Below are positions 1,108 through 37,164 of a DNA stretch of 64,000 nucleotides, one piece after another. The notes below the pieces were generated by a model. It ran no database searches, had not been told where the DNA came from, and worked only from the letters and a program-made list of their open reading frames with translations. Origin of the DNA: a phage; sequence record PV805633.1. One strand, written 5' to 3'. The position numbers and the translations under genes are program-made. How positions within the stretch are numbered: position 1 is the first letter of the stretch; every line of letters starts with the position of its first letter.

Positions 1108-2160
1108 ATGGCGAACATTGACTCCTTGACTGTATGTAATACACGGCAAGCCCGTAACTTTATTATCCGTGCCTTGCAAGCAGGTAACGTACCGTTCCTG
1201 ACTTCATCACCGGGTATGGGTAAGTCTGCAATTATTCATTCTATTGCAGAAGAATTTGGTATGAAGCTGATTGACCATCGTTTGTCTACTTCTGCCCCAG
1301 AAGACTTATCTGGTCTACCATTCCGTAATGGTGACCGTGCAGAATTTATTCCTTTCGCTGATTTATTCCCTATCGAGGGTGACGAAGTACCGAAAGGTTA
1401 TAATGGCTGGCTCCTGTTCCTTGATGAGTTCAACTCAGCTAAAAAGGAAGTAGTAGCTGCTGCATACAAACTGATTCTAGACCGTATGACCGGACAGAAA
1501 AAACTTCACCCTAATGTGATGATTATCTGTGCCGGTAACAAAGCTACTGACCGAGCCATAGTTAACCCACTGGGTACTGCAATGCAGTCCCGTGTTGTCC
1601 ACTTCGAAATGGAACTCGACTTCGACATCTTTGTTGAAGACGTTATGATTCCACAAGAATGGGATGAGCGTCTGGTTGCATTCTTACATGCTAACCCTGG
1701 TTATCTGCATGACTTCGACCCTGCCCACAAGAACAAAACATTCTGTTGCCCACGTACCTGGGACTTTGTTAACAAAGACCTCAAGAACCGACCAGAAGGT
1801 GCTTTGCCTGATGAAGATTCTATCTACTATGCAGGCCACGTCACTGCTGGTAAAGCTACAGAGTTTGTTCAGTTCACTCAGGTATACAATCGTATGATTA
1901 CGATTGAGAAGGTAGTCAAAGACCCTTTGGGATGTGCACTACCGGAAGATAATAACCTGTGCTGGGCTACTGTTAACCATCTGGCTAACAAAACTACTGA
2001 AGATAACTTCGCTGATGTTCTTCAGTACATTGAACGCTTTAAAACGTTCACCCATAAGATTCTGTACTTCCGTACAGTAGGCAAAGCATTACCAGAAATT
2101 CAGGCTACCCCTGAATGGCGTAAAGCTGCTGCCAATATCTCTCGTTACATTCACGGATAA
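1108..2160 (+). CDS. MoxR-like AAA+ ATPase
   Basis: Walker A SSPGMGKSA, Walker B LLFLDEFN; 350 aa; strong RBS GGAGAG; paired with downstream VWA-like gene. Confidence 0.8.
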   Translation: MANIDSLTVCNTRQARNFIIRALQAGNVPFLTSSPGMGKSAIIHSIAEEFGMKLIDHRLSTSAPEDLSGLPFRNGDRAEFIPFADLFPIEGDEVPKGYNGWLLFLDEFNSAKKEVVAAAYKLILDRMTGQKKLHPNVMIICAGNKATDRAIVNPLGTAMQSRVVHFEMELDFDIFVEDVMIPQEWDERLVAFLHANPGYLHDFDPAHKNKTFCCPRTWDFVNKDLKNRPEGALPDEDSIYYAGHVTAGKATEFVQFTQVYNRMITIEKVVKDPLGCALPEDNNLCWATVNHLANKTTEDNFADVLQYIERFKTFTHKILYFRTVGKALPEIQATPEWRKAAANISRYIHG

Positions 2161-2167
2161 TCACAAC

Positions 2168-3343
2168 ATGAACCAGATACCTCAGCACACACTTAGTGAT
2201 GAACAACTCATGCGTGAGTATGACCGTATTCAGGCCCAAGCCTTCCTAGGCAAGTCTGCTGCGTTTTTTGGTTCATTGCTGTGTAGTCTTAAGTTCTCAT
2301 GGAAACGTGAGGGTTGTCCCACTGCATGTACCGATGGGATAGAACTCCATTTCAACCCTGACTTCTTTATCTGGATGTGCCCTGATGCAAGAGAAACAGT
2401 GCTAATGCACGAACTCTGGCATGTGGCATATCTGCATGGCATCCGTTGTGGAAGCCGTGACCCGGAAGTCTGGAACCAGGCATGTGACCACTTCATTAAC
2501 CTTCAGTTAGAGGAAGATGGTTACAAGTTCACTGGTATCGACGAAGGTATTTGCAAAGACCCTCAATATAAAGGATGGGTCGAAGAAGACATCTACGATG
2601 ACCTGATGAAGAACCCTCAGAAAAGGCAGAAGCCGTCGGGGGGAGCTGGAGCAAGTCTTGCTGGCGACATGAAAGCCCCCTCTTCGGGGCAGTCCCAGGG
2701 TGCTGTTGTCAACAACGTAGTGCGTGCAATGCAAAGCCAGAAGATGGCTGGTGGAACAATGCCCGGTAAAGGTGCTGGTCGTATGGAAGAGGTTATTACC
2801 CAATTCCTTAAACCAGTAGTTCCATGGCAGGAAGTTCTGATGAACTTCTTTACCGACATTGATGACACACATTATACGTGGGCCAGACCTAACCGTCGCT
2901 TCACTGACGTCTATCTACCTTCTCTGGAAGATGATGAAGGACGCTTACGACACTTAGCCTACTTTGAGGATGTATCCGGTTCTATTAGTAGTGCTGACTC
3001 TCTGCGTTTTAACTCAGAGGTTGCCTACGTTAAGAGCCAGTTCAATCCTAAGAAGATGACCCTAATTACCTTCGACGATATTATCCAAGAAGAAATAGAC
3101 ATCACTGAAGAAGATACTTTTGAAGAGATTAAGATTACTGGTCGTGGTGGTACAAACCTTGAACCAGTGCGCGAATGGATTATTAAGAATAAACCAACCG
3201 CTGCAATCATATTCTCCGATATGTATGTTCGTCCAATGGAAGAATTACCATTTGATATCCCTATCATCTGGTGTGTTCTGAATAATCCTAATGCTACCGT
3301 ACCTTTCGGGGAGGTAGTTCATATCCCTAAAGGAATGAAATAA
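2168..3343 (+). CDS. VWA/DUF2201-like protein with N-terminal HExxH metallopeptidase-like motif (partner of MoxR-like ATPase)
   Basis: LMHELWHVAYLHG motif; 391 aa; immediately downstream of the AAA ATPase, the usual arrangement for MoxR-VWA pairs. Confidence 0.65.
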   Translation: MNQIPQHTLSDEQLMREYDRIQAQAFLGKSAAFFGSLLCSLKFSWKREGCPTACTDGIELHFNPDFFIWMCPDARETVLMHELWHVAYLHGIRCGSRDPEVWNQACDHFINLQLEEDGYKFTGIDEGICKDPQYKGWVEEDIYDDLMKNPQKRQKPSGGAGASLAGDMKAPSSGQSQGAVVNNVVRAMQSQKMAGGTMPGKGAGRMEEVITQFLKPVVPWQEVLMNFFTDIDDTHYTWARPNRRFTDVYLPSLEDDEGRLRHLAYFEDVSGSISSADSLRFNSEVAYVKSQFNPKKMTLITFDDIIQEEIDITEEDTFEEIKITGRGGTNLEPVREWIIKNKPTAAIIFSDMYVRPMEELPFDIPIIWCVLNNPNATVPFGEVVHIPKGMK

Positions 3344-3849
3344 TGATTGTTAATGGTAATTCTCTATACCGTTCATCTCAATTGCTGGATGTCCCAGACC
3401 GTAAAGTATCCGAGCATGGTGTAAGCTATGGATTAGGTGAAGCTGGTTATGATATTCGTATCAAACAAGACATTACCTTCTATCGCTTATTTGGATTGAT
3501 TCCAATGGTGAAAATCGCTGATGGAAAACAAGTATCACGCCACTTCGGTAAGTTTGCATTGGCTTCAGCAATTGAGAAATTCAACATGTCCCCGTCCTGT
3601 GTAGCTATCGTTCACGATAAGTCCACATGGGCAAGACGTGCATTATCTGTGTTCAATACCGTAATAGAACCAGGATGGAAAGGGTATCTTACCCTCGAAC
3701 TGGTCTATCATGGTCGTAAGAAACTGCATATCCCGGCTGGTGCTGGGATAGCTCAAGTATTATTTCATCTGGTTCAAGAGCCTGCTAACTACAATGGCAA
3801 GTATCAGAACCAGGAAAACAAACCAGTTGCTGCAAGAAGCAGCAAATAA
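3343..3849 (+). CDS. dCTP deaminase-like protein (dUTPase superfamily)
   Basis: 168 aa; EPGWKGYLTLEL resembles the Dcd/dUTPase DPGW...G signature; ATGA overlap with upstream gene. Confidence 0.65.
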   Translation: MIVNGNSLYRSSQLLDVPDRKVSEHGVSYGLGEAGYDIRIKQDITFYRLFGLIPMVKIADGKQVSRHFGKFALASAIEKFNMSPSCVAIVHDKSTWARRALSVFNTVIEPGWKGYLTLELVYHGRKKLHIPAGAGIAQVLFHLVQEPANYNGKYQNQENKPVAARSSK

Positions 3850-3858
3850 GGAAACAAC

Positions 3859-4059
3859 ATGTCAGTATTTCAAGTATCTCCTGTTGACAGTACCCAACGT
3901 AAAACTATTGTTGCAACTAACGTAGTAGATGTAGATGAAACCCCGACTGGTGCTGTAATTCATCTGATTGATGGACGAACTGTAACTGTAAAAGAAAGCT
4001 ATCGTTCAGTACGTGGATATGTTCGTAAAGCTTTGACTGCTGACTCTGACGCAGAGTAA
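3859..4059 (+). CDS. hypothetical protein (66 aa)
   Basis: ORF track; GGAAACAAC upstream of ATG. Confidence 0.5.
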   Translation: MSVFQVSPVDSTQRKTIVATNVVDVDETPTGAVIHLIDGRTVTVKESYRSVRGYVRKALTADSDAE

Positions 4060-4071
4060 GTAGCTGCCTAA

Positions 4072-4097
4072 ATAGCCCAACTATGTTGGGCTATTTG
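4072..4097 (+). terminator. terminator-like hairpin (9-bp stem ATAGCCCAA/TTGGGCTAT)
   Basis: Perfect 9-bp inverted repeat with 5-nt loop followed by TTGTG; weak U-tract. Confidence 0.4.
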
Positions 4098-4132
4098 TGA
4101 AGAAACTATCTCAACCTCACATAGGAACCATC

Positions 4133-4393
4133 ATGGAATCTTTAGCAGCAATCCTCGTTCTGTTATTTGCACTTGCTGTATACCTTATCCCTACTATTAT
4201 TGCTTTTGCACGAGGCCATGCCTCTAAGTGGGGCATTGGTGTACTCAATATCGTATTAGGCTGGTCTTTAGTCTTCTGGGTAGTAGCACTGATTTGGTCA
4301 CTGTCTAATAAAGAACAGTCTCAGACTACAATCGTTAACGTTGGTAGTGGTAACCAGTACAACGTGTCTCAAACGAGCCTGTCTGATAAGTAA
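4133..4393 (+). CDS. small inner-membrane protein (2 predicted TM helices), possible superinfection-immunity-like
   Basis: MESLAAILVLLFALAVYLIPTIIAFARGH...NIVLGWSLVFWVVALIW; track ORF begins at an upstream GTG (4097), ATG at 4133 preferred. Confidence 0.5.
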   Translation: MESLAAILVLLFALAVYLIPTIIAFARGHASKWGIGVLNIVLGWSLVFWVVALIWSLSNKEQSQTTIVNVGSGNQYNVSQTSLSDK

Positions 4394-4467
4394 CTAACCT
4401 AAGCATCATTGTATAGTGGTGCTTGTGGAAGTTACTTCCAGCTCATTACTTATCCATCTCCTAATCC

Positions 4468-4494
4468 AAGCCCACCTAACCCGTGGGCTTTTTT
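4468..4494 (+). terminator. Rho-independent terminator (AAGCCCAC/GTGGGCTT + T6)
   Basis: 8-bp stem, 7-nt loop, TTTTTT tract. Confidence 0.7.
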
Positions 4495-4578
4495 AATTAC
4501 AGGTACTCTTATGTCAAACAGACAAATGGTAAGTCTATCTTATATGGACTGGACTTAAGTAAACTGGAACAAACTGCA

Positions 4579-4890
4579 ATGCTTACTTTAGGTATACATG
4601 ACCAAGTAGAAGTGAATGGAATTGGTCCTGATGTTTGTGCAGCAATGCAAGCTGCTATTCAGAAAGGATGGACTAGTAGATCATTTAATGTTTTCCCATA
4701 CATCCCTCCTGAACCTCATCTGAAATCTAAGGTAGACAGAATCATAGATAAGTTCTGGCTTAGCCCATGCGGGGATGACATGCATCTTTACCTGGCTCAA
4801 ATACAAAAGAATCCGCGTACTAAAGATGTGTTCAAAGGCAAAAGCACTACCCACCATTACCCTTGGTATAGAAGAGGTAGTAAATACTAA
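4579..4890 (+). CDS. hypothetical protein (start uncertain; track ORF begins at GTG 4483 inside the terminator stem)
   Basis: First in-frame ATG downstream of the terminator; no clear SD. Confidence 0.4.
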   Translation: MLTLGIHDQVEVNGIGPDVCAAMQAAIQKGWTSRSFNVFPYIPPEPHLKSKVDRIIDKFWLSPCGDDMHLYLAQIQKNPRTKDVFKGKSTTHHYPWYRRGSKY

Positions 4891-5333
4891 TGCGTATCCC
4901 ATTCCTAAGAAAAAGGGAACGAAATCCTGTTCTTTATAATAAAGGTATAGAGGATGAGTACGAACTCAACCGTAAAGCCCGTTCCTACGCAACAAAATTA
5001 TTCATGGGGACTAGCAACCCTAATAGATTACTGGACTTTGTTTTCGAACAAGTCTTTATCATATACAGCTTAGCTATGTCTGCTGGTTCACAAGAAGTAA
5101 GTGATAAGGCAAGATATGCTCTCTGTATGCTCCGGAAAGAGTATGAAGCCATCATGTATGAAGACTTGTACTCCTTTAAGAAAGAAACCGCTGTAGCGTG
5201 TTCTGTGGCTCTTACTGAAGGTATAGCAGTATTACAAGAACTACCCCGTAGTGAGTTTAAGCTGGTATATGTCCAGGCCAGGAGAATTACAGAAAACCGA
5301 AGTGGTATTACCAACTATCTAAGGTCATTCTAA
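4890..5333 (+). CDS. hypothetical protein (147 aa)
   Basis: ORF track; start overlaps upstream stop. Confidence 0.55.
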   Translation: MRIPFLRKRERNPVLYNKGIEDEYELNRKARSYATKLFMGTSNPNRLLDFVFEQVFIIYSLAMSAGSQEVSDKARYALCMLRKEYEAIMYEDLYSFKKETAVACSVALTEGIAVLQELPRSEFKLVYVQARRITENRSGITNYLRSF

Positions 5334-6277
5334 TGATTAAGGCAACTGTCATTGCAGATTCCGTTCATCATGTAACGGGTACTCGTATTACTACCTTTGA
5401 ATTGGTTTATCCTCGATTCATTCACAGTGAGTTTATGACCCACCGTGTATTCAACCGAAATGCTTCAAGTAGTCGTGCTATCCCTACTTCTAAGTTCATC
5501 GAACAGGTTCGTAATGAACCAGTGATGCCAAGTCACTGGGGCAAGAACCAGAAAGGTATGCAGGCATTTGAAGAATTGTCTGAAGACCAGTGTAGTGATG
5601 CAACCTTTATCTGGGAACAGGCTGCATCCAGTGCTGCTACCTATGCAGAAATGCTACGTCGTGGACAAGTACATAAGCAGATTGTTAACCGTATTCTGGA
5701 GCCATTCACACATATCCGTGTAGTAGTAACTTCAACTAGCTGGGCTAACTTCTACGGCTTGCGTGACCATGAAGATGCTCAACCAGAGATTCGTGAATTA
5801 GCTCAAGCAATGCGTAAGGCTCATAATGAAAGTGTTCCATCTAAGCTGTCCCAAGGTGTGTGGCATCTGCCTTATATTCGCAAGATTGATTGTATTAACG
5901 CTTACGATCATTGCAAATATCAACGAGTTACTTGTGATAAACCAAGTGATGAAGAAGTTATAGGCTTACTGCTTAAAGTCTCTGCTGCTCGTTGTGCTCG
6001 TGCCTCCTATAACAACTTTGAAGGCAAGCCATCTACTATTAGTGATGACCTTGCTCTCTTTGCTAAGTTGGTAGAGAAACAACCAATTCATGCATCACCT
6101 ACTGAGCATCAAGCTACCCCGATGGACTTCAGTACCAAGTTTGTTAACAACCAGAACCCATTAACCTGGGAACAAGGTGTTACTTCAATGGACCGGGAAG
6201 GTAAGCTGTATTCTGGTAACTTAATGGATTTCATCCAATTCCGTAAACTAATCCCCGGAGAAACAATTACAGAATGA
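5333..6277 (+). CDS. thyX: flavin-dependent thymidylate synthase ThyX
   Basis: 314 aa; RFIHSEFMTHRVFNRNASSSR matches the ThyX RHR...S.R signature region; ATGA overlap with upstream gene. Confidence 0.7.
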   Translation: MIKATVIADSVHHVTGTRITTFELVYPRFIHSEFMTHRVFNRNASSSRAIPTSKFIEQVRNEPVMPSHWGKNQKGMQAFEELSEDQCSDATFIWEQAASSAATYAEMLRRGQVHKQIVNRILEPFTHIRVVVTSTSWANFYGLRDHEDAQPEIRELAQAMRKAHNESVPSKLSQGVWHLPYIRKIDCINAYDHCKYQRVTCDKPSDEEVIGLLLKVSAARCARASYNNFEGKPSTISDDLALFAKLVEKQPIHASPTEHQATPMDFSTKFVNNQNPLTWEQGVTSMDREGKLYSGNLMDFIQFRKLIPGETITE

Positions 6278-6510
6278 AGCGTTTAGCTATCCAAGCAATG
6301 ATTGTAAGCATCATCCTGGTTCTGGAATTTGTATTTGCACTGCATGGTGCACAGAGCCTGGAAGGGATGTTTTTCGTAGTAGCTCGTTTCTCTGCATGTG
6401 TTCTTGGCTTATGGTGTGTGTATTACTATGCACGCGACTATGTAGCTATCAAGGAACATGATGATGCTAAGGAACGTCTACGACAATTCGTAGAAGAGAA
6501 TCGTAAGTAA
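6274..6510 (+). CDS. small membrane protein (78 aa)
   Basis: Two hydrophobic segments; ATGA overlap with thyX stop. Confidence 0.5.
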   Translation: MKRLAIQAMIVSIILVLEFVFALHGAQSLEGMFFVVARFSACVLGLWCVYYYARDYVAIKEHDDAKERLRQFVEENRK

Positions 6511-6516
6511 ACCTAA

Positions 6517-6541
6517 GACCTCCTCCGGGAGGTCTTTTTTT
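6517..6541 (+). terminator. Rho-independent terminator (GACCTCC/GGAGGTC + T7)
   Basis: 7-bp stem, 4-nt loop, 7 T; stem sequence near-identical to the terminator at 58-93. Confidence 0.75.
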
Positions 6542-6569
6542 GGTTTCAATTACTGTCCCAGGAGGACTT

Positions 6570-6794
6570 ATGGCAAGTTGGTACGCAACTATGTTGGAGA
6601 AAGATTCCAATGGACTATACAGGGAATCCGTCGGTAGTTTTAAAAACATCTGTATAGATGGGCGTTTATGCATGATTAACGCAGTAGATATTGCAGAAGA
6701 AACCCTATCTAAAGAATCAGGTTATGCAGGGTTTAAGCTGGAAAAACTTAATAGAGCCTGGGATTACAGAAATCCTTTTATTTATAAAAAATAA
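6570..6794 (+). CDS. hypothetical protein (74 aa)
   Basis: AGGAGG SD 4-5 nt upstream of ATG 6570 (track ORF starts at upstream TTG 6540). Confidence 0.55.
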   Translation: MASWYATMLEKDSNGLYRESVGSFKNICIDGRLCMINAVDIAEETLSKESGYAGFKLEKLNRAWDYRNPFIYKK

Positions 6795-6803
6795 GGAAAC
6801 AGT

Positions 6804-12039: not shown

Positions 12040-12435
12040 ATGAGTTCTGTATACAGAGTTAATCGCAAAGCAACTGATGAAGACATCATTCGTATGAATG
12101 CTGTTGGTCTATCCCTCGCAACTATCGCTAAGACGTTGGGGGTTCACCCCACTACGGTTACTTTGCGATTGCGTTCTTTAAACATTGAACCAGCCGACAC
12201 ACGTCGGACGTTCATGGAGAATGTACTCCGTCCATTACCAACCCATGTGGTAGATTGGCTATCAGAGCAAGTTGGTCCTGCTTATGAGATTCGTTCATAT
12301 GTAAGGGACTTGATTCTGGAGGCATATAATAATCGCCACCTTAACCAAGAGAGTGAGCATGACAAGTTCATCCGTTTGTACGCTGGAAAACACACGGCAA
12401 TGGTTTCTAAAAGCCGTACCAAATCCGACGAGTAA
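12040..12435 (+). CDS. putative helix-turn-helix DNA-binding protein (131 aa)
   Basis: NAVGLSLATIAKTLGVHPTTV HTH-like segment; GAGGAAA upstream of ATG 12040. Confidence 0.5.
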   Translation: MSSVYRVNRKATDEDIIRMNAVGLSLATIAKTLGVHPTTVTLRLRSLNIEPADTRRTFMENVLRPLPTHVVDWLSEQVGPAYEIRSYVRDLILEAYNNRHLNQESEHDKFIRLYAGKHTAMVSKSRTKSDE

Positions 12436-12481
12436 GAATATTAGTACCCAGATTGGTTGCCATCTGGAAGAAGTATGTGAA

Positions 12482-12820
12482 ATGTTAGACGAGTTAACTC
12501 CTTCATGCGAAGAAAGTATGCAGGTATTAGCTGAAGCACAATCTGCTTTAAGTAAACTGTCCTTACTCATGAAAACAAATCACACAGCTGTTTTCCCAGA
12601 AGATGCCAATCGTTTGGCTCTCCTGGATGCACTGGCAGATCAGATTGTTACAGCAACTGGCGTCGGTACTTTTCTTGGGATGAATGTCCCTGGAGCATTG
12701 GCTGAAGTCAATCGCTCAAACTATTCCAAGTTCGAAGATGGGGAACCTATCTTCAACGAGAATAAGAAAGTCATGAAGGGGAAAGATTATACTCCCCCTG
12801 ATTTAACACCTTACATCTAA
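12482..12820 (+). CDS. hypothetical all-alpha protein, possibly MazG-like NTP pyrophosphohydrolase (start uncertain; frame open from 12353)
   Basis: EEVCEMLDE acidic motif; track ORF overlaps the upstream gene by 83 nt, so ATG 12482 chosen. Confidence 0.35.
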   Translation: MLDELTPSCEESMQVLAEAQSALSKLSLLMKTNHTAVFPEDANRLALLDALADQIVTATGVGTFLGMNVPGALAEVNRSNYSKFEDGEPIFNENKKVMKGKDYTPPDLTPYI

Positions 12821-25853: not shown

Positions 25854-28800
25854 TTAGTTTACTAAGTTCATCCAAGGGTTTAGGTTGTGAGCACGAAGCC
25901 CCTGACCAAAGCCCCATGAGTAATCCAGACTACCCTTAGCAGCAATACTAAAGATGTTGTCCTGAATAGGTAAGCCAACGTTACCAAACATGGTAGGAGT
26001 TGGAGCCAGCATCGCCATTGCTGCATGTACTGGGTTATTGCGAATCATGGACACTGCAACTTTTGCAGAACGAATCTTAAAGTTGTAGAACCACATCAAA
26101 CCAACACTTTCCATATACCCACGGAAACGACCAGGCAGACGGTCATAGTTAATGAACTCTTCGGTTACACGTCCCAGTGCTTCTTCACGAGTCTTACCTT
26201 TACGCTGAGTCAGTTCATCATAGATGATTGCTTTAGCGATAAAGTCAGAGTACTCAACCGTCTTCTGGATACCCTGGAACAGAGCAGTATCTTTAGTGAT
26301 AAGTGCATAACGACCAGCAGCACGTACAGACTTAGGTAACTTATCCGCCAGCTTTTCCATGTATTCGTGAAGTTTGCCTTCAGTAATCAGGATGTCATCA
26401 CGACCAATACCAGCATCTGCAATTGAAGAGAACTCACCAGCTTCTATCAGAGGCCAGATACTCATACGCTTATGGCTATCAGTAATGGACTGAATCTCAG
26501 CCTTAAGTTTACGAATCTGATTCGGGTTAGTAGCTGCACGTAATTCTGCTTCTGCATCTACCTGACGTAAACGAGATTTAAGGTACTGGTTAATCTCAGC
26601 AGTTTTCTGTGGAATGCTCTTAGCAATGTTCTTAACTGGCACACCACGAGCAACCATCTGGTAAAGGTTAGCCAAAAAGTTAACAACAGGTACGACTACT
26701 GACTTAACTACAATCAGAGTCTTAGCATCTTTAACTAAGTTTTGAACCAGGTTCTCACCACCCATTAAGTACTTATAGGCGCGGTTACCGGCTAAACCCA
26801 GAATAGCTTTTTTAAAAGTATTAAGCGTTTCCGGGGACCAACGAGAATTACCAGACCAAGCATCACCAATCGAAGCTGCACGATAGCCAAGTGCATCATT
26901 CAGCATGTCACGACGTACCCACAGTTCACCCTCACCAAACAGTTTTTCTGCTTTCCGTCGAGTTTCGCTGTTCATCAGCTTAAGAGCATCAGCAGTTACT
27001 GGGTCCAGCTTAGAACCAAAAAGGTTCACGTACTGGGACTTATTAGCAGCAGACATCTTAATGTCTTCCTTGTACATGCTATACAGGTTCTCAATCAGCA
27101 TATCATTGAAACGCTGAGCCTTAGCTTCTTCCACCTGACGTCCACGCCATACACCAATTGCACGGGCAAGATGATTTTCACCTTCAATATGCTTCAGCAT
27201 ATTAGGGTTAATTGATTGCTCATAAGCAACCACATCACCTTTAGCATTATATACAGGCAGCAGTGGTTCATTACCACGTTCACCACGAGCTAGTGCTTTA
27301 GCGATACGGTCTACAGAAGGCTTGTCAGTAATACGACCAGCTACCATGGAACCCATAGTAAAGCCTGTACCGAGGTCTACACCACCAGCAGTATTACGAA
27401 CGTTCTGTAGAATACCTTGTGAGAACGGAGCCTGTGCCTGTACTGGGGCAAAGTAGTAGCTACGTGCCAGACCTCGGTTAGCAGAGCTACCTTGATAAGT
27501 ACCCAGACGAACATAGGACTTCTCTATCAAATCACCAAACTCGCTATCTTCAGCAACAACCAGACTAACACCCTGTTTAGTCTCACTAGGGATATACCCT
27601 TTGTACTGGTTCAGGGTTGCACGCATATTAGATTTGGCTTTAGCCATTTCATCTTTACGCTGCCCAACCAGGTAAGAAGTAGCAAAGTCCATTCCCTCAA
27701 CTTCTGTCTGAGCCAGTGAAGATAACATCTCACGGTCGGACTTGTTCATTGCTTCCAGTGCATACAGGGTAATAAGTTTATCCAGTTGAGCTACATCTAC
27801 AATAGAACGAGTAGTCTTACGTTCACCCAGCATACGAGAGATTGCAGTAGCATTACGCAGCAAGTTTTTACCGACTGTGCCATTAATCATGTACTGAGCC
27901 AGTTGCTTAGATTTACGGTTAATCAGAGGCCAGTTACGACCAGCTTGTTTCTGCAAATCTGCTTCCAGCTTATTCACTTCACGGTCAACAATCTTCTGGT
28001 CTGAAAGCAGGTCACGAATTTCAGCCAGAGACATGGTGTCACGCAGGACAGCTAAGTCAGTTTTACCCATACCAGTGTACATTGCTTTCCACTCATCCTT
28101 AGTCAGCTTACGGCTGAACTTAGATGCGATAGTGGTAGGCAGGTGTTCACGGAACTGCTGACGGTCAGCCTGCACCTGTGCACGGACTGCTTTAATCAAA
28201 TCGTATACAGAAGCATTGCTCTTAGTACGACCGGTTAAATCATTAACCAGGTCATGGAAAGGTTGCCATACTTTACCCTGGTTCATTGCAACCATAACGC
28301 CTTCAGCTACGTTTGCACCATTCTTCTCTGTAGCAATAGCAGCCATTAGTTGTGCAGCATGAGCAGCACCTTTGACCAATGGGTTCTTGGTATTAGCTGC
28401 AACTTCACGAGCACTTTCTAAAACACGAGTAGACAGTACATCAATAGAGTCCACCAAATACTGGTTAGCACGGTCAATAGCATTACCACTAGGAGTAGCA
28501 ACGGAATCATAGAATGACTGTGCATTTAGGCTAGTCTGCATGATTGTTTGAGCCAGTGCATCCATACCTTCCTGTACGTTGGTAGCTTTGGTATCACCTG
28601 CTACACGAGCATTCAGACTAGCCATTGCAGCAGTACCAATGTTAGTCAGCATTGCATCAACGGTATTCCCAGATTTCTTATCTGCTTTCATAACAGGAAT
28701 GTTAGCCAGTACGCTACGTACCTCTTCACTTACCATTGCCAGACCAACAAAGGTAGGCAGTATTGAAGAACGACCCTGTGCATCAAACTCAATATTGTTA

Positions 28801-31800
28801 GCACCCATGATGGTATCGAACTTCTGCTGTGCATAGTAACGGTCAGCAGGGTTAGTACTATCTGGGTCAGTCATGAATGATTCAACAGTCAGGTTCTTAG
28901 TAACGTGTGCATAGTATTCCTGTGCACGAGAAAGAGCAGCCGGACTAATAGCAGCTTCAGTAGCGAGTGCAGCAACAATGTTAGTAAAGAGACGCTGTTC
29001 CTGCATATTCATGGTAAAGCCATGAGCCTGAACATCACGGGTTACTTTAGTTGCGTGCTTTTTCGCATCAGAGAACTTACCTTCACGGATTACTTGCTGT
29101 ACTGGTTCTGAACCAATGTAGTTAGTAATCAGCTTATCAAAGGTCTGTCCTAACTCTTCCAGACGGGTATTGTCACCATATGCTTTGTTATGGAACAAGG
29201 TAGTATCTTTGGCTACAGCAGCCGTAGGAGCCTGACCACGCATAACTACTGAAGAGTTAAACAGTAAGCCAGAGAACATATCATCTGCATTAGCAGGTGC
29301 TTTCTTGCGACCAAATACCAGACGTTTGATTGCTTCATATACTGACTGAACCATGGCTTTCAGTGCAGTGGTCTTCTTCTGCTTACTAATTAATTCACGG
29401 TTAGTTAAGCCCCAAGCCATGTACTCATTCAGTGCAGCAGCTTTAGCCATTGCTGGTTCAATAAAGCCGTTAGACAAGTGACCATTAATGGTATTAAGTG
29501 CATCAGCATATGCTTCACGTACTGCCGGAGATTCATCCATAACATCCAGATTACGGAACTGGTTCATCAAGTCTTCAATATTCTGGACTGCTTCATTAGG
29601 AGTACCCTCATAGTGAGCCAGTACAGATTCAAAAGTAGAAGCATGTACTAATTCATGAACCAGAGTCTCTAGGGAAGGGGTAACTAAGTAGATGGTTTTA
29701 TCATCAAAGTTAGTCCAGCCATACGCATTACCAGCTTCGGCAGCTTCAATATCTTCCGGTGCTGGACGAGTAATGTTCTTCTCAATAGCATAGGCATCCA
29801 GTTGAGCAGGAGTACCGTAAACAACTTTGTAGTCTTTAGCAGCAAGGGATTTCTGTATCTCTTTCAATACTGCTTGCTGTTCTGGAGACATCTCTTTAGC
29901 CAGCTTGGTAATAGCAGTATTAGACAATAGACGTACACCAGACTTAAGTACACGACCAACTTGTTCCATTGCTGGCACTTCTTTAGTAGGTACTTCTTTC
30001 ACTGGATCTGCTTTAGCAGCACGTACTGCATCACGACGCTTATTTAATTCAGCATCAAACAGTTCGTTCAGCTTAGCTACTTGCTGGTCTACAGTCAGTC
30101 CCTCAAGAGAAATTTTACCGTTGTTCACATAAGGAGCACCTACAGCAGCCATCTGGTCAACAGTGGTCTGTACCTGGTTCATTACTTTGTGGCGAATATC
30201 CACACTTAAAGCAATGTTACGCAGGTTACGCTCAATAAGGTTAACACCGGAATTCTTAATCATATCAATCTTATACTGCCTGTCTCCCTCAACGCGACTG
30301 ATATGAGAAAGCTGTTCAAAATCTAAAGCGGAACGGGCAATGTCATCAATTGTCTTATCTGACAACTTATCAAAGTCTACATTCTTCAAGAACTCAGAGA
30401 AGGATTCATATACAGCCTTGATAGGATTCCCCTGCCAGGAAGTGTATACAGCCTCGTTTGCTTTACGACTTGCATCAGTGATGTCACTAATACCAATGTT
30501 CATACCATCAAAGATTTTCAGGGTATTCTTCGGAGCACCTTTCATAGTAGAAAGGGTCTGCATCATCATGCCATCACCAGTACCGATGGTCATAAATGGA
30601 ATACCTGCAACACCTGCTTGTGAAGGAGCATAGATGCTCATTGGCACACGCATACGGTCATCTAAGTTGGTAGCCAGTACTTGGTTAGCAACGTCAGTAC
30701 TCTCACTGCCAGCAAGGTAGAAAGTCTGTGAGCCAGTCTCAATCATTGGAGCCAATGGAGATAATGATTCCTGGATTTCATTCAGTTCTTTCTGTGTTAA
30801 GAAATCACCCTTCTTCCAGGTTGGGTCTTTTTCTTTTTCTGCTAGCTTAGCCTGTACTGCTTGCTGGAACATATCCTGCAATACCAGGGACTGAATCTGA
30901 GTAGCCTTCTGCAAGTTCTCAGTAGAGTACATCAGACCTTCACCAACAGTATTACGGATACCAGTACGCATTGGTTCAACGAACAAATGGAGCATATTCT
31001 CTTGTAAGTTCTTCAGAGCATTACCGGATACGGTAAATTTCTGAGGGTCTAACTTACCAGTCAGAGCACCATCTACTTCCTTAATAAATAACTTACCCTT
31101 ACGCTTAGCTGGAATCTTACCGGTCAGTGCTTCCATAGAAGTAAGGAAAGTATCCAGCATAGCCTGAGCATCTGCCTCAGACGCAGCCTCCTTACCAAAC
31201 ATTGCCATAGCCGGGGAAATGCTAGGGTCAGCAGCACGTGCTTGCAGAACGTCGCTGAAGCGTTCGTAGATGGTGTCAGTAATTGCACTGACCATCTTGC
31301 CAGCAATACCACGAGCACCAGAACCATAGATGGTAATGGTCAGAGGGTTCTTAGCGATACCACGTTTCAGGTCCAGAGTACCATCTTCATTCAGGTTAAA
31401 GTCTTTAATGAACAGGTCCATTAACTTCTGGAGATGATTTATCTGGTTCATAACTGGAACGTTGTTACGGTAAGTAGTACGTAACTCATTCAGTGCTTGT
31501 TGTAGACCATTGGTAGATGCTTCATACAAGTCAACATTATCGTCGATAGAACAATGTTCATTCATCGTTTTACCAGCACGACCGAAAAACAAACCACCTT
31601 TAGCAGTGTTCTTAATCCAGTCTGGGGTGAACTTACCACCAGTCATTAATACCATTGCATTGATTGGGCCGTTGGTTACACCATCAGCTTCAACGTACAG
31701 AGGGGTAGTAAAATTAGCACGGTCATCACTGTTCAGGTAACGGGCATATTCCATCAGAGCCATGAGAGCCACGAAGGATTTGTTATCACCCAGAGAGGTT

Positions 31801-34800
31801 TTCAGAATATCTACTGCATCAGTAGGTAAGTAGCCAGACTTATCAAACTCGACCATCATATCAACAGCAGGTTTCAGATTACCTTCCAGGGCTTTGGTCA
31901 GATTTTCAGACATAGCTTCACGGGACATTTTATGTACCTTGATGCCCAATGCCTGAGCCAGTCCTAGCTGGAAGTCAGAGAACGCTTGGCTGTTTTCATT
32001 ACTCAAGTCGATAGTAGAGAAGGTTGGCAGAATTGCTTCACGAACCAGTTTACTGGATTGTGGGTTATTCTTACCAAGCATCTGCATACGACCTACACGG
32101 GTCATGTTGTAACCGTAGTGGATAGGTGTATCCAGTCCATCCTCTTGTTCTTTTAGCTGATTAATTAAACCAAACAAGGAATCATATGCCATAGACACAG
32201 ACAGGTTTTTACCTTCCAGAGATTTGGCAGTGTTTTCATTCAGCAAATCAGGATTAAGAGAACCAGCACCCATCAGTTCCAGAATGCCGTCTCGACCTAA
32301 TGCTTCATAGAAATTAACCATCGGCATGTGTACACGGAACTCCGTAGCCTGTTCAGCTTTCAGAGCAGCTTTCTGTTCTGGGGTATTCCTAACCGCAGGG
32401 TTACGTAACTGAGTTTGAGCCACAGAAGGAATGTCGTCACCGAAGTACGTTTTCTCTTCCGGGTTTACCAAAACAGCTTCTTCAATTGCTGTAAGGAAAT
32501 TATTAATAGGGTCTTTATCAGCCAACTTATTAATAGTGTACAAACCAATAGTCTTATTAGAGTCCGGGTCAATCTCAGACACATCCAGCATAGTCTCAGT
32601 AACTGCACCCATCTCGATGAGGGAAGACAGAATCTCTGTAGCCATTGCCACTGGAATACCCTTGGTATAACCCAGTGGTGCATTAGGGTTACGGTTTAAA
32701 CCCCAGTAGGATTCAATCTTTTGAGCCAGTGAGTTAGTAGCCTCAATCAGAGTCTGGGCATTATCAAACTCAGCCAGAATACTTTCTGGTAACAGAGATG
32801 CATCTACACCAGTAATAGCAGCTACGTCTTTCATGTCTTTAATGGCAGCATTCTGTGTAGCAGTCAGTCGCCATTGCAGACCGGCAAGTACAGCAGTCTC
32901 TAACAACTGGTCATTGAACTTAAAGGTATCCCCGTCTTTCTCTACGATGTTAAGTAACTTACCACCTACCCAACGGTTAGCCTCAGTACCTTCTGCAAAA
33001 CGTTTACCAACATTTTTATTAGCAAGGAACTTAGCCAGTCGTTCAGACAGAGTAGCCTTCAGAGTTTCCCCAAAGTCCATCAAGTCCTGATAACGTTCTA
33101 ACACATCACCTGCGAGAACGTTATTTTCTTTTTGAGTGAACGCTTCAAAGCGAGCAGCAGAAGACAGTGCTTTCTTGATATCAGCCAAAGGAGATTCAGA
33201 GCCAATGGTACGGGACTTAGGTTCTTCCGGTAAGGTAAATGCTTTCAGGAACTGGTTCGGTGTCTTCTCATTGTTATAGACAGGGAACACTGCTTCCATT
33301 CCAGAAAGGGGTTTGCCACCCACTGTATAATCTGCTTTCAGCTGAGCCAGTGATACTTCATCCTTCTCCACGTTGTTAGTGTTACGACCAGAGGTATCTA
33401 CACCAACCAGTATCTGTGCATTATTAGCTTCAACGAAAGACTGAACAGTATTGAATTGTTCAGCAGTCAGCTTCTGATTATCAAACAGTTGCAGAGATAC
33501 GAATGGTTGTTCACTACCTTTATAGAAGGTAGAGCGAATAGCACCTGTATCCAGAGACATATCACGATAACCATCGTGACCAAATACATCGGACAGGCTG
33601 ATATGGTCGCCATTAGAACCAACCACAGTACCATCAGCAAACAGCCATGGACTCTCCCTACGATCACCATACTTATTAAGAGTTTCCTGTGAAATAGTAT
33701 TTTCTTTCACATAAGCATCTCTCTCAGATTCAGTAGGTTGTTCGACGGTATCCTCATTAGTGGGGGTAGCCTCATCTACAACCGGGCTAGTCTTTTCAGA
33801 CTTAGGTACTTTCTCTTCCTGTACAGGTGTAACTTCTGGCTGGGAGAATGTATTACGTACATAGTTCATAAAATCATTACGTGCTTGAGAAGGAGAAGAC
33901 CATACTTCCCGTGTGCTACGTAAACTAAAGATTCGACCTTCAGGAGTCATTACGTAAGGTACATTTGTTTCACCGTACTTAAATGAAGTGAGCACGTCTG
34001 ACTTACCAGTAACAGTGCTTTCCCCTGGAATGACAATAGTCTTACCACCAGTAGAAGGAACAGCACGAACACCCTCAATATCCTTACCAAGAGAAATATA
34101 CTCTTTACCGTTGTAATCAAAGTACTGACCTATCTGCATATAGGTAGCTTGTTGCTTACCAGTAAACTCAGCAGTTTTCATCTCCGGGCCATTAGGTACA
34201 GACGTACTTTCAGACTTAGGCTTAGATACTTTCTCTGGTTCTGACTTAGACTCTACAGTGTTAGGAGCAGTTTTATTGTTTACCACTGGTTTAGCTTTAG
34301 ATTGTACAGTAGTAGTGTCCTCTTGCACTGGTGCAGGGGTTTCATCAACCTGATTCACTGGTTCATTAGTCTGTTGAGACTGAGTGGCATTAAGACCACC
34401 TTGACGGAACTCTTTAACTACCTGGGCAGCTGGCTTGTTCAGACGTGAATCCAACGAGGTAACTTTCACATGAGAAACATTAAGCTCCGGGTAAGCCGTA
34501 GCAAGTGCGTTAGCAATATCAGCTACGGTCTTAGCTTCCAGCGCTACTTGCTGGGCAAACTTAACAGACTTGGTATCATAAGGATTGACACCGAGGCCAG
34601 TACGACTACGTACCCATTCACGGGTAGGCGTGAGAGCCTGATAATGAACAGACTTATTCTTATCCGCATTCCCCGAAATCAGATGCTCATTCAACGCTCC
34701 GACCTTATTCTGCATGTGCTGGGCGAACTTCATAAAATCGCTCAGATAAGCGGAGGCCAAATCGAAGTTACCAGAGTTATACGCAGAACGAATGCGTTTC

Positions 34801-37100: not shown

Positions 37101-37164
37101 AGCATGTTTCCTGTTCAAACTTATATCGTATATAGGTAACCTACTCTACAGTAAGCCAGTGTAA

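Follow-up and report, generated by a model that had tools for sequence, protein, structure and literature searches.

The pairing of a dCTP deaminase gene (dcd) with a gene for a flavin-dependent thymidylate synthase (FDTS, ThyX) is familiar from phage N4 and its relatives. The G7C annotation names the two products gp26, "dCTP deaminase", and gp30, "FAD-dependent thymidylate synthase", and notes their similarity to N4 gp26 and gp30; dozens of further relatives carry the same annotations, and the interpretation of the pair was discussed for N4-like roseophages in 2009. As a phage route to dTMP the pair is ordinary, and it is a standard idea that such a pair boosts dTTP where the phage genome has a lower G+C content than the host. 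Here we analyze the pair in a 64,000-nucleotide stretch of phage DNA (PV805633.1; the window hereafter), in which dcd (168 amino acids [aa], ATG start) occupies 3343-3849 and a gene for a ThyX-fold protein (314 aa, ATG start) occupies 5333-6277, both on the + strand. A sequence-only reading had seen in them a dCTP-deaminase-like gene and a ThyX gene, 1.5 kb apart among small genes; Pfam, NCBIfam and PHROG confirm both, and the spacing is 1.48 kb, with four small open reading frames (ORFs) between. What the comparison adds concerns the larger protein, which most probably works as a thymidylate synthase and appears to represent a rearranged, long subfamily of the ThyX superfamily; we file it outside canonical ThyX because the full ThyX motif, the collinear order and the equivalog score all fail.

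The window is a Gamaleyavirus (G7C-like, N4-family) coliphage. A 3.6-kb query around both genes matched 79 phage records, 48 of them with a query coverage of 80% or more, and these 48 are nearly all Escherichia and Shigella phages of the genus Gamaleyavirus (Schitoviridae). The top DNA matches are RudolfBernhard_Bas96 (92.6% identity over 99% of the query) and G7C (96.4% over 90%), and identity across the region to the approximately 50 sequenced G7C-like coliphages that carry both annotations is 85-96%. The order and neighbors of gp26 and gp30 are identical to those in phage vB_EcoP_G7C (G7C) and Escherichia phage N4, both members of the Schitoviridae subfamily Enquatrovirinae, and the two proteins share 98-99% amino-acid identity with their G7C counterparts, with nothing different in either gene; we therefore use the N4/G7C names for them. 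Purifying selection on both genes is strong: in comparisons with G7C and a second relative, the ratio of nonsynonymous to synonymous substitution rates (dN/dS) is 0.04-0.06 in dcd and 0.05-0.13 in the gene for the ThyX homologue. The G+C content of the window is 40-47%, and that of Escherichia coli is approximately 51%, so the earlier description of the genome as AT-rich holds in a relative sense only: it is moderately AT-rich.

Domain order, active site and spread of the gp30 family

Profile searches cover gp30 in part. Pfam Thy1 matches aa 20-169 (2.6e-14, 53.9 bits against a gathering cut-off of 24.8) through profile positions 59-190 only, TIGR02170 matches (3.4e-15, 56.2 bits) through positions 61-206 only, and PHROG 85, "thymidylate synthase", matches at 4e-113. 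Pfam and TIGRFAM thus find the C-terminal two-thirds of the ThyX profiles at aa 20-170 and leave 145 C-terminal residues unexplained. An AlphaFold2 (AF2) model built with 23 homologues (mean predicted local distance difference test score [pLDDT] 85.8, predicted template modeling score [pTM] 0.85) predicts a ThyX fold: among the 50 best Foldseek matches in the PDB, only ThyX structures and the ThyX-like UMP methylase PolB occur, each with probability 1.0. The matches extend over 150-240 alignment columns with target-normalized TM-scores of 0.42-0.63, the partial coverage and scores expected if approximately 70% of the fold is collinear.

The order of the parts can be read from a search of the family profile against PDB sequences, in which three weak, non-collinear pieces fell on Thermotoga maritima ThyX: query positions 190-227 on chain positions 6-44, with "vsaarCarvsyn" aligned to "LSAVRAARVSFD"; 18-48 on 72-102; and 106-170 on 146-212. 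In a re-ordered construct with aa 173-259 put ahead of aa 18-172, the Pfam Thy1 score rises from 53.9 to 69.6 bits and profile coverage extends from 59-190 to 13-190, as against 50.5, 50.6 and 52.6 bits (profile 60-190) for reversed, shuffled and core-alone controls. TIGR02170 rises from 56.2 to 72.5 bits (profile 18-205), still below its cut-off of 87.9, and the re-ordered constructs score 16-19 bits above native order and controls. A re-ordered family profile of 18 sequences matches T. maritima ThyX at E = 3e-7, as compared with 0.004 in native order, and does so in one continuous stretch (chain 6-102) that runs from AARVSF through HETPFEH and the ThyX motif. These gains over native order and controls indicate that the helical module found on the N-terminal side of canonical ThyX (approximately residues 20-59) sits C-terminal of the catalytic core in gp30, at aa 206-259 (SAARCARASY to HASPTEH; 5948-6109, + strand). 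On their own, the C-terminal 140 aa drew no match in a Pfam scan; the displaced module shows up only once it is joined in canonical order. The arrangement is common to the family: both motifs could be placed in 91 representatives, and in every one of these 91 HxSPxEH follows the ThyX motif (motif-order and residue counts refer to those of 150 diverse representatives examined in which the respective patterns matched).

A clean circular permutation was considered and rejected because the score hardly rises (55.4 bits) when the sequence is shifted cyclically at aa 172 with its tail and N-terminus retained; the continuous alignment required removal of the approximately 70-residue tail and of the N-terminal strand. 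This strand, "IKATVIADSV", may be the retained first strand of the canonical fold, in which case the helical module alone would have moved. Tandem duplication with partial deletion may have produced the rearranged lineage.

The active site is kept in large part. Residue equivalences below are in T. maritima numbering, taken from HMMER alignments, and the roles of dUMP- and flavin-binding residues follow section 3.1 of PMC6514825. The ThyX-motif region of gp30 spans aa 28-49 (5414-5479, + strand), from R28 to T36-H37-R38-VFNRNAS-S46-S47-R48-A49, and the corresponding segment of the family profile, "fihsefmthrvfsrnasssr", aligns with the ThyX-motif segment of T. maritima. H37 (His79), R38 (Arg80), S46 (Ser88) and R48 (Arg90) are kept here, as are H253 (His53), S255 (Thr55; Ser71 in Mycobacterium tuberculosis), E258 (Glu58) and H259 (His59) in the H-motif and R120 (Arg147), N139 (Asn169) and R144 (Arg174) in the core. 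Arg28, placed outside these alignments, presumably stands at the position of the dUMP-binding Arg87 of M. tuberculosis. H253, S255, R48, R120, R144 and R28 are invariant in the family alignment. ThyX mutant structures among the Foldseek matches (S88A, R90A, Y91F, R174K and H53A/D) show that these are the positions on which work on ThyX has centered, and they too inform the roles assigned here.

A lack of ThyX catalytic residues would have refuted the sequence-only reading, and the outcome is mixed: most substrate and flavin residues are present, but gp30 has neither the first Arg of RHR nor the Tyr lid. The former, Arg78, which according to the same section of PMC6514825 contacts the isoalloxazine and dUMP, is Thr36 in gp30; Tyr91 of the lid is Ala49, Arg165 is Thr135, and Ser83, the inner Ser of the ThyX motif, is Asn41. 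The complete motif RHRxxSxxxxSxR(Y) is accordingly not matched, gp30 reading T-H-R-V-F-N-R-N-A-S-S-S-R-A with H-R and S-x-R kept. Because T-H-R together with the Ala is present in 95 of the 96 representatives matched by the search pattern, Thr36 and Ala49 are family traits, not decay. The family also has parts of its own: an invariant HWGKNQxGMQA loop, a WHLPY strand, an RCAR motif and, in the gp30 model, an extra helix at aa 184-196. The C-terminal tail bears the motif GN(L/F)xxW/F-IQ(F/Y)RK at aa 292-306 (6206-6250, + strand), with Q302 and R304 invariant in the family alignment, and a looser aromatic-Arg pattern follows the H-motif in 112 of 138 representatives; the pLDDT of the tail is low, 57 falling to 30. 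We infer only that the tail Arg (GNxxGWIQ(F/Y)RK) may replace the missing Arg78.

The family is large, comprising 5,240 clusters at 50% identity with E up to 1e-3 and 2,793 with E up to 1e-30. Seven long members (550-650 aa) might have carried metabolic fusion domains; their extra segments proved to be inteins, carrying an endonuclease of the HNH or LAGLIDADG kind, that interrupt the protein beside the ThyX motif (at approximately aa 25-32) or beside HxSPxEH (at approximately aa 262). Such placement is typical of essential active-site segments and would support the functional importance of both motifs. Relatives are encoded by at least 388 stretches in the genomes of 185,579 species, many of these stretches lying on phage-like contigs, and approximately 30 of the best 80 of these come from Pseudanabaena and related cyanobacteria. 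All 30 Pseudanabaena-type loci encode the rearranged type, 29 of them at 62-97% identity to the remaining, reference one, and in P. minima the gene sits on a complete chromosome, where its neighbors are cbiC and genes for a tetrapyrrole methylase, a GAF protein, RecO, an MFS transporter and malic enzyme. Because the rearranged gene is chromosomal and conserved across cyanobacterial loci, it appears to encode a working housekeeping enzyme.

Two other loci bring together genes of these kinds. The chromosome of Calothrix sp. NIES-2100 holds, at 4407-6798 of the locus retrieved (L030), a dcd gene (Pfam DCD 5.9e-24), a split ThyX of canonical order and, at 5989-6798, a rearranged ThyX, so that the canonical and rearranged forms stand side by side with dcd approximately 1 kb upstream of the latter. 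The split ThyX consists of ORFs 5084-5623 (HHETPFEK...IKHRISSVNAESQRY) and 5679-5900 (NFRSFVNIQQLRNSDHSQKEI) in different frames and may be a pseudogene or reflect an assembly indel. A 69-kb contig deposited as "MAG: archaeon isolate PL23a_bin.95" (JANQNF010000027.1) encodes a Dcd with 96% and a ThyX homologue with 88% amino-acid identity to those of the window, beside the same von Willebrand factor A (vWA) neighbor; this is the genome of a G7C-like coliphage that was binned with an archaeal metagenome-assembled genome (MAG).

gp26 and the proposed route from dCTP to dTMP

gp26 matches Pfam DCD (1.7e-16, 61.1 bits against a gathering cut-off of 27), PHROG 1663, "dCTP deaminase" (3.4e-59), and TIGR02274 (3e-22, 79.2 bits), its top family by approximately 50 bits. 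Its closest solved relatives are 4dhk of Burkholderia thailandensis (1.6e-11) and 3km3 of Anaplasma (1.3e-10), followed by 4xjc (2.7e-7), 4a6a/2qxx (approximately 3e-6) and E. coli 1xs1 (3.9e-6). Ser94 and Arg98 fall in the "kSt.aR" columns and Glu119 in the "tLE" columns shared with 4dhk, 3km3, 4xjc and 4a6a, and the deaminase-specific columns are conserved across five solved Dcd or bifunctional proteins; we take these residues to be Ser111, Arg115 and Glu138 of E. coli Dcd, in the numbering of Johansson et al. 2005, a study cited in PMC10733785. The DCD domain, Ser-x3-Arg, the catalytic Glu and a KYQxQ C-terminal lid are common to gp26, 4dhk, 3km3 and 1xs1, the GKYQNQ of gp26 aligning with the "gkyqgq" lid of the solved relatives. 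With 4dhk and 3km3 in particular gp26 shares a Glu as the acidic residue of motif 3 (Glu109 in VIEPGW, as in FEPEW and LEPGW). The protein is approximately 20-25 residues shorter than the short proteobacterial Dcd and E. coli Dcd, being trimmed at the N-terminus and in the loop at aa 47-70. A homologue search for Dcd returned only relatives at more than 93% identity, unfit for a deep alignment. The PDB entries 9ln0 and 8y1w ("dCTP deaminase", 155-156 aa) have Met ("ltlml") in the column of the catalytic Glu, where gp26 and other Dcd structures read "tlel".

These matches also bear on whether gp26 might be a plain dUTPase that merely sanitizes the dUTP pool, the outcome that would have removed it from the sequence-only scheme. 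Weak secondary matches to Pfam dUTPase (6.5e-6) and PRK02253 (3e-7) exist, but dUTPase models reach just 17-30 bits against cut-offs of 102-130 (for the trimeric-dUTPase models TIGR00576 and PRK00601, 18.3 and 17.0 bits against 102.55 and 103), whereas the dCTP-deaminase model reaches 79. The deaminase Glu and Ser-x3-Arg are in place, and the solved relatives significant at E up to 1e-4 are all Dcd or bifunctional dCTP deaminase-dUTPases (DCD-DUT) except the weakest, 2yzj, a "hypothetical dUTPase" (4.6e-5). We regard a plain dUTPase as barely credible: on profile and residue evidence gp26 is a dCTP-deaminase-type member of the dUTPase superfamily.

We posit the following route. gp26, expected from homology to be a homotrimer, would deaminate dCTP to dUTP at Ser94, Arg98 and Glu119. 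Since a monofunctional Dcd yields dUTP and ThyX uses dUMP, a dUTPase step is needed between them; this step, which neither gene clearly provides, could be carried out by (i) the Dut of the E. coli host, (ii) the phage MazG-like protein encoded at 12353-12820 or (iii) gp26 itself, were it bifunctional. gp30, as its fold, conserved residues and gene context suggest, would then methylate dUMP to dTMP with methylene-tetrahydrofolate and a reduced flavin regenerated by NAD(P)H, independently of host ThyA and with no consumption of tetrahydrofolate to dihydrofolate. Host Tmk and Ndk take dTMP to dTTP. The ThyA-independent channeling of dCTP to dTTP put forward in the sequence-only reading thus agrees with the standard annotation of N4-like phages, but the two enzymes are not directly connected.

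A comparison with N4-like roseophages (DSS3phi2, EE36phi1 and R7L) bears on what the pair is for. There, too, a cytosine-nucleotide deaminase is encoded a few genes upstream of the gp30 homologue; the dCTP deaminase is replaced, two genes upstream of the retained gp30 homologue, by an unrelated zinc-dependent dCMP deaminase, which makes dUMP directly with no dUTPase step. Because this replacement is non-orthologous, making dUMP for gp30 is plausibly the selected function. The Calothrix locus, with its dcd close to a rearranged ThyX, likewise speaks for a coupling of the two activities in one pathway.

As two genes of the replication (middle) block, gp26 and gp30 would probably, though not beyond real doubt, raise thymidylate supply during phage DNA synthesis. 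Several points weigh against this conclusion. Both proteins fall under their NCBIfam equivalog cut-offs (gp26 with 79.2 against 92.8 bits for TIGR02274, gp30 with 56.2 against 87.9 bits for TIGR02170), and gp30 has lost Arg78, Tyr91 and Arg165. Neither gp26 nor gp30 appears clearly to provide the link from dUTP to dUMP. A terminator-like hairpin, suggestive only, separates dcd from the ThyX gene, and in the searchable literature no member of the rearranged family, N4 gp30 included, was found to have been tested biochemically or genetically.

Two further readings alter a part of the scheme. Were gp26 a bifunctional DCD-DUT, it would make dUMP directly, and the phage pair would suffice by itself for the whole route from dCTP to dTMP. 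The fold and residues that it shares with the bifunctional 4xjc (2.7e-7) and 4a6a/2qxx (3e-6), the acidic Glu109 at the motif-3 position of the water-activating Asp of dUTPases, and the lack of a recognizable trimeric dUTPase among the window ORFs and in the G7C annotation all speak for it. However, 4dhk and 3km3, the nearest solved relatives, carry the plain label of dCTP deaminase in the PDB, motif 3 has a Glu instead of the Asp, and the phage has Dut available in its host and a MazG-like pyrophosphohydrolase of its own. We consider bifunctionality unlikely, if far from negligible; it is a variant of the best explanation, not an alternative to it, and sequence alone cannot separate the mono- from the bifunctional form.

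The other reading concerns gp30, which could be a ThyX-fold enzyme with another chemistry or substrate, such as a PolB-like UMP methylase, a modified-base hydroxymethylase or a nucleic-acid uracil methylase. Its score under the equivalog cut-off, three changed residues in the canonical flavin/dUMP site and the rearranged topology would fit, and the structural matches include PolB, a homologue of ThyX whose specificity is altered (PMC5003785). Yet gp30 keeps the set of Arg and Ser residues that bind uracil and phosphate, its gene shows linkage to those for dCTP or dCMP deaminases, makers of deoxyuridine nucleotides, the same type of protein is encoded by a conserved chromosomal gene in a cyanobacterial genus, and Pfam and PHROG scans and the G7C annotation revealed no glycosyltransferase, kinase or other hypermodification genes nearby. 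N4-type DNA is not known to carry an unusual base. Another chemistry is improbable, and thymidylate synthesis by gp30 remains our preferred reading.

Gene block and transcription units

The gene order in the window is that of the G7C block: gp24 ATPase, gp25 vWA, gp26, gp27, Imm, gp29, gp30, rIIA/rIIB, MazG-like gp36, helicase and DNA polymerase. Two differences stand out: G7C has an HNH gene, gp24.1, between gp24 and gp25, which the window lacks, and the window has an additional ORF at 4483-4890 with no counterpart in the G7C annotation. Directly upstream of dcd, 1108-3343 encodes gp24, an AAA ATPase, and gp25, with DUF2201_N putative metallopeptidase and VWA-like domains (Pfam 8e-55 and 1.8e-34); PHROG 1314 labels gp25 an "HNH endonuclease", in conflict with these domains. 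The dcd start overlaps the stop of the vWA gene (TAATG), coupling gp25 translationally to dcd. Between dcd and the ThyX gene lie, all on the + strand, a gp27 homologue of unknown function (3859-4059; PHROG 7594 7.6e-30, G7C annotation); a gene for an Imm-type superinfection immunity membrane protein (4097-4393; Pfam Imm_superinfect 9e-17, PHROG 1039 4.5e-34), of the type known from T4 and here placed between two nucleotide-metabolism genes; the additional ORF (4483-4890; 135 aa, function unknown, PHROG 12812); and a gp29 homologue of unknown function (4890-5333; PHROG 9867 1.9e-87). The ThyX gene overlaps its neighbors on both sides, its start with the gp29 stop (TAATG) and its stop with the start (ATGA) of a gp30.1 homologue (6274-6510, + strand; PHROG 12633 2.1e-43), a small hydrophobic protein.

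A consensus scan placed terminator-like hairpins followed by T tracts at 4468-4490, between the dcd and ThyX blocks, and at 6515-6536, closing the ThyX block, both on the + strand; the first is suggestive only, and terminator-like sites in total do not exceed shuffled expectation. The stem-loop annotated in G7C is located elsewhere, between gp27 and gp27.1. On the basis of these hairpins, dcd and ThyX probably belong to two distinct, neighboring transcription units, vWA-dcd-gp27-imm and ORF-gp29-ThyX-gp30.1. The listed GTG start of ORF 4483-4890 overlaps the first hairpin, and its true start is probably downstream, since the PHROG 12812 match begins only at aa 12. A sigma-70 promoter scan gave 13 sites against 13.7 expected, which is chance level; it is uninformative because N4 middle genes use a phage RNA polymerase.

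Farther downstream, the MazG-like nucleotide pyrophosphohydrolase (12353-12820, + strand; PHROG 671 9.5e-34, RefSeq name in G7C) is a homologue of G7C gp36 and a candidate for the step from dUTP to dUMP. An attempt to tie it to dUTP failed: it has no Pfam match, and its best solved relative, DR2231 of Deinococcus, is weak (E = 0.42). Elsewhere in the window, a minus-strand ORF of 3,754 aa (25854-37118) may, by size and position only, encode an N4-type virion RNA polymerase, and cumulative GC skew peaks at approximately 26 kb, where gene orientation flips.

The rearranged family beside canonical ThyX

A search of the literature found no description of the ThyX rearrangement, its coverage being incomplete and an earlier description possible; the rearranged architecture is a modest, possibly undescribed side result. 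We advance tentatively, and somewhat short of thinking it probable, that gp30 and its thousands of phage and cyanobacterial relatives form an unrecognized, topologically rearranged FDTS lineage with a rebuilt flavin/dUMP site, in which the tail Arg perhaps replaces the lost one. ThyX is an antimicrobial target whose mechanism has been worked out on canonical enzymes, with Arg78, Tyr91 and the N-terminal His53 module central to it. If the proposal is true, the rearranged enzymes could handle flavin otherwise than canonical ThyX does, or have other kinetics or another sensitivity to inhibitors. With its module moved and two central residues absent, the family would amount to a natural experiment that tells which active-site parts an enzyme can do without. 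The rearrangement would also account for the failure of curated equivalog models on these phage proteins, which are annotated as thymidylate synthases in sequenced relatives even though apparently no member has been tested experimentally.

Canonical ThyX, represented by T. maritima TM0449, M. tuberculosis Rv2754c and PBCV-1 A674R (PF02511, TIGR02170), and gp30 are predicted to share one fold, with a Foldseek probability of 1.0, and have in common HxxPxEH, the H-R of RHR, S-x-R, the equivalents of Arg147 and Arg174 and the NF...LR...AQ.EI helix. They part in the order of these elements, the helical module of approximately residues 20-59 preceding the catalytic core in the canonical enzymes and following it in gp30, and in the residues that complete the site, gp30 having Thr for the first Arg of RHR, Ala for the Tyr of the lid and Thr for Arg165. 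The HWGKNQxGMQA loop, the helix at aa 184-196 and the GNxxGWIQ(F/Y)RK tail, in turn, are found in gp30 and not in canonical ThyX.

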